NCBI GenBank assembly: GCA_963771275.1
Contig: CAVYSW010000010.1
Coordinates: forward strand, 416,001 to 480,000
Source of the DNA: an uncultured Gemmatimonadales bacterium
Lineage (GTDB): Bacteria; Gemmatimonadota; Gemmatimonadetes; Gemmatimonadales; GWC2-71-9
DNA length: 64,000 bases
Direction: 5' to 3'
Shown: piece after piece, positions 3,631-9,935 of the stretch
Position numbering within the stretch: the first letter of the stretch is position 1
Layout: every line of letters begins with the position of its first letter
Notes under the pieces: generated by a model
Told to the model about the DNA's origin: nothing
Database searches by the model: none
The model's input: the letters and a program-made list of their open reading frames with translations, nothing else
Position numbers and translations under genes: made by a program

Positions 3631-4035
3631 GTGGCGCACAAGCCCGTCCTCATCCTCGTCGGCTCGGACAGCGATCGTGAGCGCGTCGAGCCGGCATGCA
3701 AGGCGCTCGACGAGGCCGGCGTGGGGTACGACCTCATGGTCTCCTCGGCGCATCGGAACGCAGAGCAGACGGCGCGGATCGCCAAGGACGCCCGCAAGAA
3801 TGGCTACCGGGTGATCATCGCCGCGGCGGGCCTCGCCGCCGCGTTGCCGGGCGCCGTCGCGGCCCTCACCGATCTCCCGGTGATCGGCCTCCCGCTCGAT
3901 GTCGGGCCGCTCCACGGCGTGGATGCGCTCTACGCCATCGCACAGCTGCCGCCTGGATGCCCGGTCGGGACGGTCGGCATCGGGATGGCCAAGAACGCCG
4001 CCTTGCTCGCCACGCGCATCCTCGGGGTCGCGTAG
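3631..4035 (+). CDS. purE: N5-CAIR mutase / AIR carboxylase, short form
   Basis: GSDSD, SAHR, AAGLAAALPG and PVIGLP motifs. Confidence 0.88.
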   Translation: MAHKPVLILVGSDSDRERVEPACKALDEAGVGYDLMVSSAHRNAEQTARIAKDARKNGYRVIIAAAGLAAALPGAVAALTDLPVIGLPLDVGPLHGVDALYAIAQLPPGCPVGTVGIGMAKNAALLATRILGVA

Positions 4036-4048
4036 CGGTCGTTTCGTT

Positions 4049-4124
4049 TTGACACGCCCGCACTGTCAAGCGGCTTCACTGACGCCGGGTGCCTTCCTGT
4101 CACAAACCGCCCGCTACCCGTGTC
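4049..4124 (+). promoter_or_regulatory. Inverted repeat TTGACA-N9-TGTCAA plus putative ECF-type promoter (TGTCACA...CGTGTC)
   Basis: Perfect 6-9-6 inverted repeat at 4049-4069; TGTCA recurs at 4064, 4098 and 4121, upstream of the DUF4382 gene and ECF operon. Confidence 0.4.
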
Positions 4125-4153
4125 AGTCAGCGAACCTCAACGGGACGTTTGCC

Positions 4154-5029
4154 ATGCGACGGACACGGATGTTCGCCACCCTGGCGCTGGGCGCCGGGCT
4201 GGCGCTGGGCTGTACGGACGGCACCGGAACGGGCGGCTCGGCCCGGCTCACGCTCCAGCTCACCGATGCGCCGACCGATCTGTTCGCGAGCGCGGAAGTG
4301 GACGTCGGGCGGATCAGCCTGATTCCGGCGGACGGGTCCCCCATCACGCTCACCGAAGCCGGCGGGACGTTCGACCTGCTCGACTTCCAAAACGGCGTGA
4401 CCGCCGAGCTGGCGTCGCTCGACATCCCTGCCGGCAACTACCTCCAGCTGCGGCTCGAGGTCACCGGGGCCCGCGTAACGCTGGCGGACGGACTCACGTT
4501 CCGTGACGGCTCGACGTCGGCCGACCTCAAAGTGCCGAGCGGCGCCCAGAGCGGGATCAAGGTGAATCTGTTCGACGATTCCTGGCAGGCCGGGACGGGT
4601 GACCCCCTCGTGCGCACGGCGGGCGTCAGCATCGCGTCGGGCGAGACGATCATCGTGCTGGACTTCGACGTGGCGCGGAACTTCCGGCTCACAGGTCCCC
4701 GTGCTACGCCGACCGGAGTGATCTTCACGCCTCTGATTCGCGCGGTCGTGCGGAACATCGCGGGCAGCATCGGCGGCGTGGTGACGGACGCGAACGGACC
4801 GGTGGCCGGCGCCACGGTACGCGCGACGCTGACGGACTCCCCCGAGCTGGCGGAGCTTCAGACCGCCGAGGCTAGCGCCGTCACCGCCGACGACGGGAGC
4901 TACACCATCTGGTTCCTGGTGCCGGGGACATATACTGTGGATGTGGACGGTGTCACGGCGGACGCCCAGTCGGTCACGGTTGGACGGGGTGAGTCGGTGA
5001 CGGACGTGAACTTCATGATCACGCCGTAG
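4154..5029 (+). CDS. DUF4382-domain lipoprotein with C-terminal carboxypeptidase-regulatory-like domain
   Basis: Lipobox LALGC; LTDAP, LKVPSGAQSGIK and LDFD motifs; C-terminal GSY..L.PGTYTV. Confidence 0.8.
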   Translation: MRRTRMFATLALGAGLALGCTDGTGTGGSARLTLQLTDAPTDLFASAEVDVGRISLIPADGSPITLTEAGGTFDLLDFQNGVTAELASLDIPAGNYLQLRLEVTGARVTLADGLTFRDGSTSADLKVPSGAQSGIKVNLFDDSWQAGTGDPLVRTAGVSIASGETIIVLDFDVARNFRLTGPRATPTGVIFTPLIRAVVRNIAGSIGGVVTDANGPVAGATVRATLTDSPELAELQTAEASAVTADDGSYTIWFLVPGTYTVDVDGVTADAQSVTVGRGESVTDVNFMITP

Positions 5030-5087
5030 GGTTGGCGGGGGGCGCCGCCCGTGGCGCTGGCGGGCGGCGCGCCCGCAGGGAGGCGGG

Positions 5088-5639
5088 ATGGCGGCAGGCG
5101 CAGCGCGGGCGGAGCTCTCGGATCGGGAGGCGGTGGCCTGCGTGCTGAGCGGCGACGTGGAGCGGTACGCGGTGCTGGTCGAGCGGTACCGGAAGGCGTT
5201 CGGCCGCTACGCCACCGCCGTCTGCGGCGACGCGGACCTGGCGGCGGACGCGATGCAGGAGGCGTTCATCCGCGCGTACGACGGGCTCGCCGGCTGTCGC
5301 GAGCCGGCACGGTTCGGGGCCTGGTTCTTCCGCATCCTGACGAACCAGTGCCGCAACCACCGCAGCCGGCGCCGCATGCACCTGCCGCTCGAGACCGTCC
5401 GAGCGGCGGCGCCGGAGCGGGCGGACGACGGGGTGGGGGCCGCGGAGACGCGCATGGCGATCGCGGCCGCGTTGGACGGTCTTGCACCGGAGCATCGTGA
5501 GGCGTTCGTGTTGCGGCACCTGGACGACCGGTCCTACGCGGAAATGGCGCAGCTGTTGGGCGAGCGGGAGGACACGCTGCGGATGCGCGTGCATCGTGCG
5601 CGCGCGGCGGTGCGCCAGCGGCTGGAGGGGGTGCTATGA
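5088..5639 (+). CDS. ECF RNA polymerase sigma factor
   Basis: Region 2 (AADAMQEAFIRAY...FGAWFFRILTN) and region 4 (REAFVLRH...SYAEMA) only; 183 aa. Confidence 0.93.
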   Translation: MAAGAARAELSDREAVACVLSGDVERYAVLVERYRKAFGRYATAVCGDADLAADAMQEAFIRAYDGLAGCREPARFGAWFFRILTNQCRNHRSRRRMHLPLETVRAAAPERADDGVGAAETRMAIAAALDGLAPEHREAFVLRHLDDRSYAEMAQLLGEREDTLRMRVHRARAAVRQRLEGVL

Positions 5640-6286
5640 CGAGCGACGACTGGAGTGAAGCGACGCGGCGCTACCTGGACGGGGATGGCCCGGCGCCGGC
5701 CGACCCGGCCGAGCGCGGGCGGGCGGATCGCTTGAATGCGGCGTTTGCCGCGTACGCCGCCGAGCTGGTGCCGCCCGGGGCTGAGGTCGATCGTGCGGTG
5801 CTCGCGTCCGTGCGGGCGCGGCAGATGGCGCGCCGGGGCTGGTGGCGCTGGCTCGTCGAGCCGCGGCAGCTTGCGGTGCGTCCAGCGGTGGCAGCGGCGG
5901 CGCTCGTGGTGATTCTGGTGGCCGGCGCGGCGTTGGCGGCGCTCATTGGGTCACCTGACCGGCCGGGCGCCGAGCTGCGCGTCGCGGCGCCACCGGACCG
6001 CACCGTGCTGGTTCGTTTCGAGCTGGTCGCTCCCGACGCGCATTCGGTCGCGCTCGCCGGATCGTTCAATGGCTGGAACGACTCCACGACCGTGTTCACC
6101 CAGGGTGTGGAGGCCGGCGTCTGGACGGTGACGGTGGCGTTGGTGCCGGGCGAGTATCAGTACCTCTTCGTGGTGGATGGCCGACGCTGGATCCCGGATC
6201 CGGCGGCGCATGCGCAGGTCGAGGACGATTTCGGGCAGCGCAACAGCCTGCTCGTCGTCGGCCCGCGGGGAGTGGTGCGATCATGA
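5636..6286 (+). CDS. Putative membrane anti-sigma factor with C-terminal CBM48/AMPK-beta-like glycogen-binding domain
   Basis: ATGA overlap with the sigma gene; one TM helix; VALAGSFNGW...GVW...GEYQYLFVVDG..WIPDP...DDFGQRNS. Confidence 0.8.
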   Translation: MTSDDWSEATRRYLDGDGPAPADPAERGRADRLNAAFAAYAAELVPPGAEVDRAVLASVRARQMARRGWWRWLVEPRQLAVRPAVAAAALVVILVAGAALAALIGSPDRPGAELRVAAPPDRTVLVRFELVAPDAHSVALAGSFNGWNDSTTVFTQGVEAGVWTVTVALVPGEYQYLFVVDGRRWIPDPAAHAQVEDDFGQRNSLLVVGPRGVVRS

Positions 6287-6999
6287 GACGCATGCTGATG
6301 CTGGCCGCCCTGCAGCTTGCGCTGGGGGCGGGAGCGGCGGCGGCCCAGACGCGCGACATCCGTGCTGAGCTGGCCGCGCGCGGGGCGCCGGCCGATTTCA
6401 TCGCGCGGGTTGGCGCCACGGTGGACGCGGCCCGCGCGCAGGGCCTGCCGCCCGAGCCGCTGATTGACAAGGCCCTTGAAGGGTGGGCCAAGCGGGACCG
6501 CGTACCGCCGGAGCGGGTGCTGGGCGTCCTCGAGCAGGTGCGCGCGCGCCTCGCCGAGGGCCGCGCTGCCACGGTGCGCGCGGGCATGGCCGACCCGCCG
6601 GGCGCGGTCGTCGCGGCGTCCGCCGAGGCGCTGGGGCGCGGCATGACCGCGGACGATGTGCGCGACCTCGTCGCGACCGCGTCGGACGCGGATCAGGCGG
6701 CGGCCGGGCTTACGGTGGCCGCGTCGCTGTGCGCTCAGGGACTCGACCGGGGGGCCGCGGTTCGGGCAGTGCAGGATGGCTACCGCGGGCACAGCGGCAC
6801 CGAAGGGCTGTTCGAGTTGCCGTCGGCGGTCGCTGACCTGACCGGGCACGGCACGCCGATGGCGGATGTGGCACGGCGCATCATGCAGGGAGGCGGACTC
6901 CCGGCGCCTGCGGCAGGCCAGGGCACCAGTCAAGGGCGGCCCGGCACCGTACCGCCGGGCCGCGGGAGCAAGGGCTCCGGACACGTGCGCGGGCAGTGA
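6283..6999 (+). CDS. Secreted Ala-rich helical hypothetical protein
   Basis: Signal peptide ending AAA-Q; 4-bp overlaps on both sides; Gly/Pro-rich tail. Confidence 0.7.
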   Translation: MRRMLMLAALQLALGAGAAAAQTRDIRAELAARGAPADFIARVGATVDAARAQGLPPEPLIDKALEGWAKRDRVPPERVLGVLEQVRARLAEGRAATVRAGMADPPGAVVAASAEALGRGMTADDVRDLVATASDADQAAAGLTVAASLCAQGLDRGAAVRAVQDGYRGHSGTEGLFELPSAVADLTGHGTPMADVARRIMQGGGLPAPAAGQGTSQGRPGTVPPGRGSKGSGHVRGQ

Positions 7000-8051
7000 T
7001 CCGCGGCGTCGGTGTCGCCACCCTCCTGTGCGCGGGTATCCTCGAGGCCCAGGAGGGCTCGCTGTTCTTGGGGGCGAGCCGCGCCCGATACGCCGACAGC
7101 CTGGACGGGACGGCGGCGTTCGCCGCGGGCCGGCTGACCGCCGGGCGTGGGCTACGGGCCGGCGAGCTCGACGGAGCCTTCTCGGCGTTCACGAGTGGAG
7201 GCTGGGCGCTCCAGGTCGCGGGTCAGGCGACGGTGTTGTGGCGCGCAGAGCGCACTCGGGGACCCTTCCTCGGGTTCGCGGGCGGTGCCACGCTCAACGC
7301 GTACCAGGGGGGGACGCCAAGCGGGTCGCTGGCCGGCGGCCCGCTCGTCGCGCTCGCAGCAGGGTCGTCCTATCTCTCGCTCGGCGTGGCGGGGGGCGCC
7401 GTGCGTCGCGTGGACTCGACTTGGTCGCGGCTGGGCAGCCTCTCGGCCCGGTGGCAGTGGGCGCCCACGCGCGCACTGAGCGCGGACGCGGGCGTGACGC
7501 TCACAGGCTCCGATACCAACAGACTGGCCGACGTGTCCCTCGGACTGCGCACGGGTGGGGCGCCGGTGAGGATCTCGGCCATCGCGGGGACCCGCATCGG
7601 CGACCTCGCGGACGGGCCCTGGGGCTCGCTGGAGCTCGTGTGGCAGGCGACGTCGGTCGTCGCGATCGAGGCGTCGGCCGGACGCTTCCCGCAGGACCTC
7701 GCGGGGTTCGCCCACGGTCTCTACGCCCAGGCCGGCGTGCGGCTCGCGACCCGCGGGGCGGGCGGTCTGCCTCCACCCACCCTGACCGTGACGCCGTTCG
7801 GAAACGACCGCGTGCGGGTCGCGCTGCGCTACCGGCGGCCGGCCACCGCGCTCGCCATCAGTGGAGATTGGAACGGCTGGACCGCGATCCCGCTGCGGCG
7901 CGAGGGAGGCTGGTGGATCGTGGAACTGCCGCTCACACGCGGCGTGTACCACTACGCGCTCGTCGCGGACGGCACGTGGACGCTGCCCGACGGCGTGCGC
8001 GGCATTGCCGACGAGCTCGGCGGGCAGGTCGCGCAGCTGATCGTGCGGTAG
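6996..8051 (+). CDS. Exported protein, probable beta-barrel with C-terminal CBM48-like domain
   Basis: Signal peptide; amphipathic alternating strands; C-terminal ISGDWNGW...WW...GVYHYALVADGTW...DELGG. Confidence 0.7.
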   Translation: MIRGVGVATLLCAGILEAQEGSLFLGASRARYADSLDGTAAFAAGRLTAGRGLRAGELDGAFSAFTSGGWALQVAGQATVLWRAERTRGPFLGFAGGATLNAYQGGTPSGSLAGGPLVALAAGSSYLSLGVAGGAVRRVDSTWSRLGSLSARWQWAPTRALSADAGVTLTGSDTNRLADVSLGLRTGGAPVRISAIAGTRIGDLADGPWGSLELVWQATSVVAIEASAGRFPQDLAGFAHGLYAQAGVRLATRGAGGLPPPTLTVTPFGNDRVRVALRYRRPATALAISGDWNGWTAIPLRREGGWWIVELPLTRGVYHYALVADGTWTLPDGVRGIADELGGQVAQLIVR

Positions 8052-8114
8052 CCCGGGACGGAGCCGCGGATTCTGCGGCGGCGCAGGCCGTGGCGCGAGC
8101 GCCGTTCCGCCTGC

Positions 8115-9935
8115 TCATTCCCATTCGATGGTTCCGGGCGGCTTCGATGTCACGTCGAGGGCGAGCCCCGAGACGCCCGGCAACGCGAGGATGGCGTCCC
8201 GCAGTTCGGCGACGAGCCCGGGGGGGAGCTCGACCGGCGCCGCGGTCATGGCGCGCTGCGATTTCACGGGACGGATCACGACCAGTTCGCCGGGGCGCTC
8301 GTCGAGCGTGAGCGGGACGAGGATGGTCGGGCACTGCCAGACATCGTCGTAGATCCCGTGCCGCTCCAGCCCCTCCATCACGAGGTGGTCGGTGTCCCGC
8401 AGCAGATCGAGCCGCGCGCGGGTCACGGTCGCCCTGATGGCGCGGGCGACGCGCGGCACGGCGGGTCCGAGGTTCCACACGCAGCGGTTGATTCCGGGCA
8501 CGTCGCTCGTGAGCAACGAGACGGCGTCGATCAGCGTGCGCCACGGGACCGTGCCGTGGAGCAGCACCGGATGCTCGTACGCGCGGAGGTCGGCCTTCAC
8601 GCCCACCGACCGGATCGGCAGCGGCAGGGCAGCCAGGCTGAAGCGCCGGGCAATCGCCTCGACCTTGGGAGTGATGGCGTCGAAGTCGGTGCGGTCATCG
8701 GTGCCGTCGCTGCAGAGCAGCCGGATACCCAGGCCCGGGCCCGGGAAGGGATGGCGCCGCAGCATCGCGTCGGGGACACCCAGCTTGGTCCCCAGCTCGC
8801 GGACTTCGACCTTGTACAGCTCCACCAGGGGCTCGATCACGTCGCCGGCGGCCATCATCTCCTCGATGATCGGCACCCGGTTGTGGTGGGTCTTGATCGT
8901 ATCCGCACGGCGGGTTCCCCCGGTCTCGATCGTGTCGGGGTAGATCGTTCCCTGGCCCAGCAGGCGGTCCGCAATGCCGAGTCTCCGGGCCTCATCCTGG
9001 AACACGCGGATGAACGTGTCGCCGATGATGCGCCGCTTCCGCTCCGGGTCGATCACGCCTTCGAGGGCCGTCAGGAAGGTGGTGCTGGCGTCCCGGAAGT
9101 GAAACCGCGATCCCAGTCCGAGATGCTCGAACATCGCCGCGACCTGGCGGCTCTCGTCCTTCCGCATCAGCCCGTTGTCGATGTGCAGCAGGTCCACGCG
9201 ATCGGGACCCAGCGCGCGCCCGATGATCACCGCCGCCACCGTCGAATCCACGCCGCCCGAAGCCAGCAGGAAGACCGATCGGGTGCCCGCCGCCCGCCGC
9301 ACCTTGGCGGTTTCCTCCTCGAGGAACCCGTCCATGGTCCACGTCGCGCGACAGCCGCAGAGGCCGAACACGAAGTTGGCGATCATCCGGTCGCCGTGGA
9401 CGGTGTCGTCCACTTCCGGGTGGAACTGCAAGCCATAGCGCCGCAGCTTGTCGGAGCCGATCGCGGCGAACCGATGGGCCTCCGCTCCGGCCGCCGCGGG
9501 CGTGTGCCCGAGCTCGCGAAACGCCGGTCCGACTGCCACGACGGAGTCGTAGTGGCTCATCCACACCTGCTCGACCGCCGCCAGCCCGGCGAATAGCGGG
9601 TGATCGGCGGCGAGATGGAGGTCGGTGCGCCCCCATTCGCGCCCGCCGTGGATCACGGTGCCGCCATAGTGCTTGGCGATCTCCTGATGGCCGAAGCAGA
9701 GGCCGAGGATCGGGGTGTCGAGGTCGTAGATCTCCTTGGTGTAGATCGAGTCCTCGCCGTACGCTGACAGGCTTGGGCTGCCGGAGATGATGATGCCGCG
9801 GTACGGTCGAAAGGCGTCGAGCGGATCTTCCGGCTGGCGGATCTCCGCAAGGACGCCGAGGCGGCGCACCTTGGTGGCGATCAGGTGCGCATACTGGCCG
9901 CCGAAATCGATGACGGCGATGGCGTCGTGTTTCAT
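8115..9935 (-). CDS. guaA: GMP synthase (glutamine-hydrolysing), long form
   Basis: IDFGGQY, LGLCFGHQ, QFHPEV, SGGVDS, IKTHHN, RHPFPGPGL and SKPPGTIEWE; ATG at 9935. Confidence 0.93.
   Translation of the reverse strand: MKHDAIAVIDFGGQYAHLIATKVRRLGVLAEIRQPEDPLDAFRPYRGIIISGSPSLSAYGEDSIYTKEIYDLDTPILGLCFGHQEIAKHYGGTVIHGGREWGRTDLHLAADHPLFAGLAAVEQVWMSHYDSVVAVGPAFRELGHTPAAAGAEAHRFAAIGSDKLRRYGLQFHPEVDDTVHGDRMIANFVFGLCGCRATWTMDGFLEEETAKVRRAAGTRSVFLLASGGVDSTVAAVIIGRALGPDRVDLLHIDNGLMRKDESRQVAAMFEHLGLGSRFHFRDASTTFLTALEGVIDPERKRRIIGDTFIRVFQDEARRLGIADRLLGQGTIYPDTIETGGTRRADTIKTHHNRVPIIEEMMAAGDVIEPLVELYKVEVRELGTKLGVPDAMLRRHPFPGPGLGIRLLCSDGTDDRTDFDAITPKVEAIARRFSLAALPLPIRSVGVKADLRAYEHPVLLHGTVPWRTLIDAVSLLTSDVPGINRCVWNLGPAVPRVARAIRATVTRARLDLLRDTDHLVMEGLERHGIYDDVWQCPTILVPLTLDERPGELVVIRPVKSQRAMTAAPVELPPGLVAELRDAILALPGVSGLALDVTSKPPGTIEWE

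Follow-up and report, generated by a model that had tools for sequence, protein, structure and literature searches.

A putative envelope-signaling module of the Gemmatimonadota

We describe a gene module at positions 4154 to 8051 of a 64,000-nucleotide stretch of DNA (hereafter, the window) from an uncultured Gemmatimonadales bacterium (GenBank contig CAVYSW010000010.1, positions 416,001 to 480,000). The module is probably a self-activating envelope-signaling unit, typical of Gemmatimonadota, that pairs an extracytoplasmic function (ECF) sigma factor with an anti-sigma factor. Its five genes, three of which we designate open reading frames (ORFs) 2 to 4, lie on one strand behind a candidate promoter:

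4099..4126, plus strand: candidate ECF-type promoter, GTCAC-N18-GTCAG, 28 nt before the DUF4382 start codon
4154-5029, plus strand: DUF4382 lipoprotein gene (Pfam), which opens the unit here and is a predicted regulon member elsewhere
5088-5639, plus strand: sigma gene, ECF (group 4) sigma-70 family by Pfam and TIGR02937
5636-6286, plus strand: ORF2, a protein with one transmembrane (TM) segment in the anti-sigma position, its putative role assigned from position and topology
6283-6999, plus strand: ORF3, a secreted all-helical repeat protein (alignment, AlphaFold2)
6996-8051, plus strand: ORF4, an exported beta-barrel with a C-terminal CBM48-like domain (Pfam, AlphaFold2, Foldseek)

The sigma/ORF2, ORF2/ORF3, and ORF3/ORF4 pairs each share a 4-bp start/stop overlap (ATGA or GTGA), at 5636, 6283, and 6996, and the ORF coordinates thereby bear out the four-gene chain that a first-pass annotation had read from the sequence. 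Pfam, AlphaFold2, and Foldseek also agree with the protein types it had named: an ECF sigma factor, a one-TM protein with a CBM48 domain, a secreted protein of helical fold, and a barrel that carries the second CBM48. The profile searches that it had suggested (Sigma70_r2/r4_2, AMPK1_CBM/CBM_48, and DUF4382) all returned matches, and Pfam searches of the unit's proteins detected neither a glycosidase nor a TonB-dependent transducer, as it had also reported.

The 183-amino-acid (aa) sigma factor matches Sigma70_r2 (E 1.8e-13) and Sigma70_r4_2 (E 1.4e-12) in Pfam and the sigma70-ECF model TIGR02937 in NCBIfam (86.4 bits; cut-off, 42.9). With regions 2 and 4 only and a score above the cut-off of the ECF superfamily model, it is classified by sequence as an ECF (group 4) sigma factor.

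Gene order is conserved across the phylum

Among 8000 scored candidates, at least 373 qualified as relatives of ORF2 at E<=1e-3; both carbohydrate-binding module (CBM) families, AMPK1_CBM and CBM_48, are present in each of the 120 listed, and those with taxonomic names are Gemmatimonadota. A scan of species-representative genomes yielded 52 loci, of which L001 to L037 all derive from records with Gemmatimonad titles. ORF3 directly follows ORF2 in all 37 of these, ORF4 comes next in 35 of the 35 whose sequence reaches so far (L003 and L017 end before it), and a sigma gene lies ahead of ORF2 in 35 of the 35 that reach upstream (L031 and L035 begin inside ORF2). The neighborhood conservation that the first-pass annotation had left to be surveyed is thus extensive, with the order sigma-ORF2-ORF3-ORF4 in all 35 Gemmatimonadota loci that have enough flanking sequence. 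With a heuristic choice of start codons, the 4-bp overlap is kept at 29/35 sigma/ORF2, 29/35 ORF2/ORF3, and 21/32 ORF3/ORF4 junctions. Two contigs of metagenome-assembled genomes, L027 and L029, show a sigma gene that is either split between two matches or cut short, possibly owing to a frameshift or to misassembly.

At E<=1e-10, the ORF4 profile matches 194 of the 301 genomes sampled from the phylum (83 of 127 genera), some of the matches covering the CBM part only; the count takes in four genomes flagged unpublished (G057, G156, G181, and G096). The module or its parts often occur in more than one copy per genome, and this spread and multiplicity suggest that it is likely one of the main envelope-signaling routes of the Gemmatimonadota, which are abundant in soils and sediments and almost unstudied genetically. 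The genome under study itself harbors a second, diverged copy on another contig (L056, C3:1499500-1507500):

L056:2244-5165, minus strand: sigma, ORF2', ORF3', and ORF4'
L056:5338-6246, plus strand: divergent DUF4382/CarboxypepD_reg lipoprotein gene

Outside the main clade, the diverged loci L040 and L044 encode ORF4 and two ORF3-like helical proteins, one on each side of the barrel gene. Across the loci, ORF3 is the partner kept most consistently; ORF4 occurs often though not everywhere.

A shared promoter motif links the operon to DUF4382 lipoprotein genes

Upstream of the sigma genes we identified a motif of fixed spacing, GTTAC(C/T)TT...GTCT(C/G), with the general form GTnAC-N18-GTCT. Loci L001 to L044 (440 kb) contain 64 copies of the pattern GT[TCG]AC-N18-GTCT, whereas 100 shuffles averaged 7.3 and never exceeded 13. 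In 30 of 40 loci, a copy lies at most 160 nt ahead of the sigma start. The motif takes the form GTTAC-N18-GTCT in the main clade and GTGAC-N18-GTCT in the diverged clade, while the GTCAC-N18-GTCAG of the window (4099-4126) is its own clade's version of the family motif; GTCAC-N18-GTCT precedes DUF4382 in L001, L005, and L036 and sigma in L003 and L009. In the window clade, DUF4382 lies directly before sigma, and the motif stands before DUF4382 rather than before sigma. A scan of 3900-8400 for sigma-70-type promoters gave no match.

The remaining copies of the motif are nearly all located before DUF4382 lipoprotein genes or genes for small secreted Gln-rich proteins. Pfam assigned DUF4382 to all 11 of the lipoprotein genes tested behind the motif and no credible family to the five Gln-rich proteins tested. 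In a profile search, 23 of 44 loci had a DUF4382 gene within the flanking sequence retrieved, and the motif lies upstream of 19 of these 23 genes, be they upstream, divergent, or downstream of the operon; GTGAC-N18-GTATC precedes the DUF4382 gene of the second copy (L056). Because the motif precedes DUF4382 genes wherever they are placed, we assign the DUF4382 gene to the predicted regulon as more than a chance neighbor. The first-pass annotation had noted a DUF4382 gene directly upstream: the adjacency stands, and in addition the module's own promoter motif precedes the gene. DUF4382 thereby gains a first regulatory context. The lipoprotein of the window matches DUF4382 (E 4.7e-23) and CarboxypepD_reg (E 4e-10) in Pfam and has the lipobox LALGC, read straight from the sequence; its best match among PDB sequences has an E-value of only 0.57.

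Across the 3.86-Mb genome, the strict promoter pattern has four matches with a downstream ORF, one of which adjoins this operon. The other single genome-wide matches are few, and we rejected them as regulon members.

The Gln-rich proteins are about 140 to 150 aa long and contain a long poly-Gln stretch. Their genes are divergent from the sigma operon in one subclade, behind the same motif:

L004:2708-3124, minus strand: Gln-rich protein gene
L007:2242-2694, minus strand: Gln-rich protein gene
L011:2728-3150, minus strand: Gln-rich protein gene
L012:4838-5266, minus strand: Gln-rich protein gene
L023:4858-5310, minus strand: Gln-rich protein gene

In L002, L004, L007, L008, L010 to L015, L017, L019, and L021, the in-frame TTG picked as the sigma start abuts the -10 element (GTCTC-TTG). 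Its place directly at the -10 element suggests that the true sigma start lies further downstream in those loci, whose mRNAs may be leaderless or nearly so.

ORF2 is a candidate anti-sigma factor with a periplasmic CBM48 domain

ORF2 consists of an N-terminal region (aa 1 to about 80) with a YLDG motif, a TM segment (aa 86-104), a linker, and an AMPK1_CBM/CBM48 domain (aa ~123-210) that scores above the Pfam cut-offs for both AMPK1_CBM (E 2.4e-10; 40.9 bits; cut-off, 26.8) and CBM_48 (E 3e-9; 37.5 bits; cut-off, 22.4). The TM segment is the single strong hydrophobic stretch of the protein (Kyte-Doolittle, 2.77), with 7 K/R versus 1 D/E among the 23 residues before it and 3 versus 3 among the 20 after it. 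Both features fit a topology with the N-terminus inside and the C-terminus outside, and the charge bias suggests that the CBM48 domain should be periplasmic, in line with the exported domain of the first-pass annotation. The protein ends in the tail VVGPRGVVRS (aa 207-216; window 6257-6286), which is invariant or nearly so in 24 main-clade homologues that are otherwise about 50-80% identical. The diverged copy in the same genome lacks this tail.

The YLDG(D/E) motif resembles helix 1 of zf-HC2 anti-sigma factors from the same phylum, and the nearest named ESM Atlas clusters to aa 1-110 carry zf-HC2, RseA_N, or RskA_C (scores of 0.81-0.87), which we take as a lead only. Together with the position of ORF2, its translational coupling to the sigma gene, its topology, and the treatment of the equivalent protein by Casas-Pastor et al., these resemblances lead us to infer that ORF2 is an anti-sigma factor.

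ORF3 is a helical repeat protein, and ORF4 tethers a second CBM48 domain to a barrel

The N-termini of ORF3 and ORF4 both read as signal peptide-like. AlphaFold2 models ORF3 with 12 helices over aa ~26-201 at a mean predicted local distance difference test (pLDDT) score of 89.9, rising to near 98 over aa 30-200. The helices are followed by a basic, Gly/Pro-rich tail in which P220 is invariant and P224 near-invariant in a 31-row alignment. ORF3 matches no Pfam family, and a Foldseek search of its model against the PDB returned nothing at E<=1e-3; its best VIA-align score (Z 7.9, to designed helical proteins) is within the range common for helical repeats. Among the ESM Atlas clusters listed, those nearest to ORF3 have no family name and are commonest in Gemmatimonadota.

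The ORF4 model (mean pLDDT, 89.6; 29-row alignment) comprises 14 strands over aa 20-251 and a beta-sandwich at aa 263-350, joined by a short linker modeled with low confidence. Its barrel contains no plug, every inter-strand connection is 2 to 9 residues long, and the nearest structure is the 14-strand porin OmpG (Foldseek E 3.4e-7; TM scores, 0.45/0.57); TonB-dependent receptors give weak partial alignments only, with a root mean square deviation (rmsd) above 27. The C-terminal domain matches AMPK1_CBM in Pfam (E 3.1e-9; 37.3 bits; cut-off, 26.8) and overlays AMPK beta CBM structures in Foldseek, such as 1z0m_B (rmsd of 1.9 over 78 columns). As a general rule for outer-membrane barrels, an even number of strands places both ends on one shared side, the periplasm. 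The C-terminal CBM48-like domain of this 14-strand barrel should therefore be periplasmic. Loops of only 2 to 9 residues argue against a surface receptor, and the modeled barrel looks like an outer-membrane anchor instead.

A complex prediction that combined ORF4 (aa 20-351) and ORF3 (aa 23-206) with ORF2 (aa 107-216) as the partner gave a score of 0.00 and a mark of 0.32, which says nothing either way. The cut used for it excluded the Gly/Pro-rich tail of ORF3.

Glycan-contact residues are partly conserved in the CBM48 domains

The ORF2 and ORF4 CBMs match each other at 32-47% identity (tblastn), which indicates that they are paralogues, and their closest counterparts of solved structure, by sequence, are a GH13 pullulanase and the CBMs of AMPK beta. 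In AMPK beta1, residues W100, K126, W133, and N150 are reported as critical for carbohydrate contact (PMC4032982), and the K126Q substitution abolished glycogen binding by the isolated CBM (PMC6274970). We located these positions by aligning chain 1z0m_A, which is AMPK beta1 (chain index + 67 = beta1 residue number), to the ORF2 profile. Among 24 ORF2 homologues, the equivalents are as follows:

AMPK beta1 W100: ORF2 W147, invariant
AMPK beta1 K126: ORF2 L177, occupied by Leu, Met, or Gln
AMPK beta1 W133: ORF2 W185, invariant
AMPK beta1 N150: ORF2 N203, invariant

ORF2 thus carries W, L, W, and N, or three of the four contact residues. The module raises the question of what role a fold of the glycogen-binding type has in the bacterial periplasm. 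Domains close to the CBM48 of ORF2 also form the ends of proteins of about 375 to 410 aa in Krumholzibacteriia, Latescibacterota, and others (L045 to L051), where no similar ECF sigma gene was found within 6 kb.

Proposed mechanism and alternative readings

If the module is a self-activating envelope-signaling unit, as we favor, the cytoplasmic N-terminus of ORF2 would keep the sigma factor inactive, and ORF3 and the barrel-tethered CBM48 domain would target the ORF2 domain in the periplasm, in the manner of RseB on RseA. The cue that perturbs this assembly would come from the periplasm or envelope rather than from outside the cell; candidates are a glycan polymer on the conserved Trp-Trp-Asn face and the loss of an outer-membrane partner. 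ORF2 would then be removed, probably by regulated proteolysis, and the released sigma factor would transcribe its own operon and the DUF4382/CarboxypepD_reg lipoprotein gene, along with the gene for the small Gln-rich secreted protein in one subclade. The module offers a defined set of promoter, sigma factor, and anti-sigma factor that is testable in a reporter host.

Several observations weigh against this proposal. The ORF2 N-terminus, taken over 24 members, matches no anti-sigma domain family in Pfam at E<=5, and an hhalign comparison with the N-termini of 30 zf-HC2 anti-sigma factors from Gemmatimonadota covered only 17 columns, around YLDGE, at a probability of 20%; a comparison of the same region with PDB sequences also gave no anti-sigma match. 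The unit contains no protease gene, and the -10 element of the window is GTCAG, in contrast to the GTCT of the family. Four diverged loci (L038, L041, L042, and L052) comprise sigma-ORF2-ORF3 only, with ORF4 not found in their flanks, which implies that the core can dispense with the barrel. The K126 equivalent is replaced in every aligned ORF2 homologue, and ORF4, with W, A/S, W, and V, retains two of the four contact residues (W295 and W328 only). Lastly, co-transcription is no proof of a sensor role, and ORF3 and ORF4 could be outputs.

The module could alternatively be a direct alpha-glucan sensor, in which both CBM48 domains bind a periplasmic glycogen-, starch-, or maltodextrin-like polymer and free the sigma factor, a reading that the first-pass annotation had offered, next to contact between the two domains via the helical protein, and that we consider possible but unlikely. 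It draws on the AMPK1_CBM and CBM_48 scores above the Pfam cut-offs in ORF2 and the AMPK1_CBM score in ORF4, on the pullulanase and AMPK beta CBMs as nearest solved sequences, and on the invariance of three of the four critical residues in ORF2. Moreover, the plant protein AKINbeta2 is reported to bind starch with just the two tryptophans (PMC4032982), and glycogen sensing was proposed for the same domain by Casas-Pastor et al. (PMC7826278). However, a K126 equivalent is absent throughout and ORF4 lacks that of N150 as well, neither the unit nor the promoter-linked genes include an alpha-glucan enzyme, transporter, or glycosidase, and the modeled barrel loops appear too short to form a binding site at the cell surface.

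Many ECF operons include target genes of their own sigma factor, and a switch made up of the sigma factor and ORF2, perhaps with ORF3, could likewise induce ORF4 and DUF4382 as cargo. The CBM48-like folds would then be protein-protein or structural modules, possibly gripping the conserved Pro-rich tail of ORF3, where P220 and P224 are kept within the Gly/Pro-rich stretch. The four three-gene loci without ORF4 and the shifting position of DUF4382, which retains its promoter around the locus, are consistent with this arrangement, yet we judge it quite improbable: ORF4 is present in all 35 main-clade loci long enough to include it, overlapping ORF3 by 4 bp in most of them, and a shared ligand or mutual contact fits the paralogy of its CBM with that of ORF2 better than unrelated cargo does.

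The envelope-signaling unit that we favor might also take a more specific form, which we put forward tentatively as a doubtful extension. A helical-repeat protein specific to the phylum would join or gate two paralogous CBM48-like domains, one anchored in the inner membrane through the anti-sigma factor and the other in the outer membrane through a loop-less barrel. Together, these parts would report the state of the periplasm or outer membrane, or a periplasmic glycan, and would control a DUF4382 lipoprotein response. Such a sensor would be new and distinct from both TonB-dependent signaling and Rcs. If the helical protein does bridge two tethered CBM48 domains, the design is one not described before.

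Comparison with known signaling systems

The closest described counterpart is ECF278s1, for which Casas-Pastor et al. (2021, NAR; PMC7826278) report a putative anti-sigma factor at the +1 position with one TM segment and a periplasmic AMPK glycogen recognition domain; the description is in silico only, and its authors propose glycogen sensing. According to the part of that source available to us, ECF278 is known from Desulfovibrio, Syntrophobacter, and Chloracidobacterium, s1 from the first two, with a predicted autoregulated promoter of -35 GTGAC and -10 GTATA (PMC7826278). Compared by description only, the window module shares with ECF278s1 the ECF sigma factor and the one-TM +1 protein with a periplasmic AMPK-type domain. 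The -35 GTGAC of ECF278s1 is that of our diverged clade, and the GTGAC-N18-GTATC of the second copy is close to GTGAC/GTATA; this promoter likeness makes a relation between the module and ECF278 plausible. In contrast, the window promoter is GTCAC/GTCAG, the host belongs to the Gemmatimonadota, and the available part of the ECF278 description mentions neither a +2 helical protein nor a barrel-CBM protein at +3, and it names no DUF4382 target.

The first-pass annotation could name no characterized system with this layout, and this holds in part: the pair of a sigma factor and a CBM-bearing anti-sigma factor is already catalogued in silico as ECF278s1, whereas the part of that catalogue available to us makes no mention of the helical protein or the barrel. 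To this pair the module adds a conserved helical partner, a second CBM48 predicted to be tethered to the outer membrane, and a putative DUF4382 output. Our literature search on anti-sigma factors with AMPK1_CBM/CBM48 and on DUF4382 found no experimental description of the module, and the single paper retrieved for DUF4382 is unrelated by its title and abstract.

In the sigma-E/RseA/RseB system of Escherichia coli, an ECF sigma factor, a one-pass anti-sigma factor, and a periplasmic co-regulator are encoded in one autoregulated, envelope-responsive operon. The module, on our reading, shares this single-operon, autoregulated, envelope-type plan but differs in its CBM48 periplasmic domain, its all-helical repeat partner, and its operon-encoded outer-membrane barrel; neither RseA_N nor MucB_RseB matches ORF2 or ORF3 in Pfam. 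The FecI/FecR/FecA system likewise encodes an outer-membrane barrel, an inner-membrane anti-sigma factor, and an ECF sigma factor together, with a periplasmic domain of the barrel facing the regulator. The module resembles it in spanning both membranes and in having a periplasmic domain on the barrel protein. Transducers of the FecIRA type have 22 strands, a plug, an N-terminal signaling domain, and a FecR-family regulator. ORF4, in contrast, is OmpG-like, with 14 strands, no plug, loops of 2 to 9 residues, and a C-terminal rather than N-terminal periplasmic domain, and neither FecR nor TonB_dep_Rec has a Pfam match in the unit.

SigI, by comparison, is not known as an ECF sigma factor. The polysaccharide-sensing SigI/RsgI systems of Clostridium thermocellum have a membrane anti-sigma factor whose outer part bears a carbohydrate-binding-type module, as ORF2 does, and they signal via anti-sigma proteolysis (PMC10328401). 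They differ from the module in their Gram-positive host, in the autocleaving periplasmic domain of RsgI with its Asn-Pro site, and, in the available part of that account, in having no outer-membrane or helical partner. Pfam detected no RsgI-type autocleaving domain family in the unit.

Limits of the transcription unit and flanking genes

The module is flanked by housekeeping genes, both judged from their translations only: an upstream neighbor that reads like purE and ends at 4035, and a downstream neighbor on the minus strand, from 8115, that reads like guaA. One further feature lies at the upstream boundary:

4026..4050, plus strand: terminator-like hairpin with a T-rich tail, just past the purE-like gene, from a consensus scan; putative function

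This hairpin would set the purE-like gene apart from the module. A second, GC-rich hairpin, at 5035-5076 between DUF4382 and sigma, was considered as a terminator and rejected: it has a folding energy of -39.9 kcal/mol but a z-score of -0.79 against shuffles, and it has no T-run. Given the promoter motif before DUF4382, the hairpin at 4026-4050, and a DUF4382/sigma hairpin no better than shuffles, we infer that the window contains one five-gene unit, driven by a promoter at about position 4099.

Elsewhere in the same genome, a GTCACAG-N16-GTCC site on contig C3 (around 1673609, plus strand) lies 79 nt before a gene for an exported protein of 1109 aa; a zf-HC2 anti-sigma gene (C3:1670778) is located some 3 kb away. 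This site may be the target of another ECF sigma factor or a chance occurrence.

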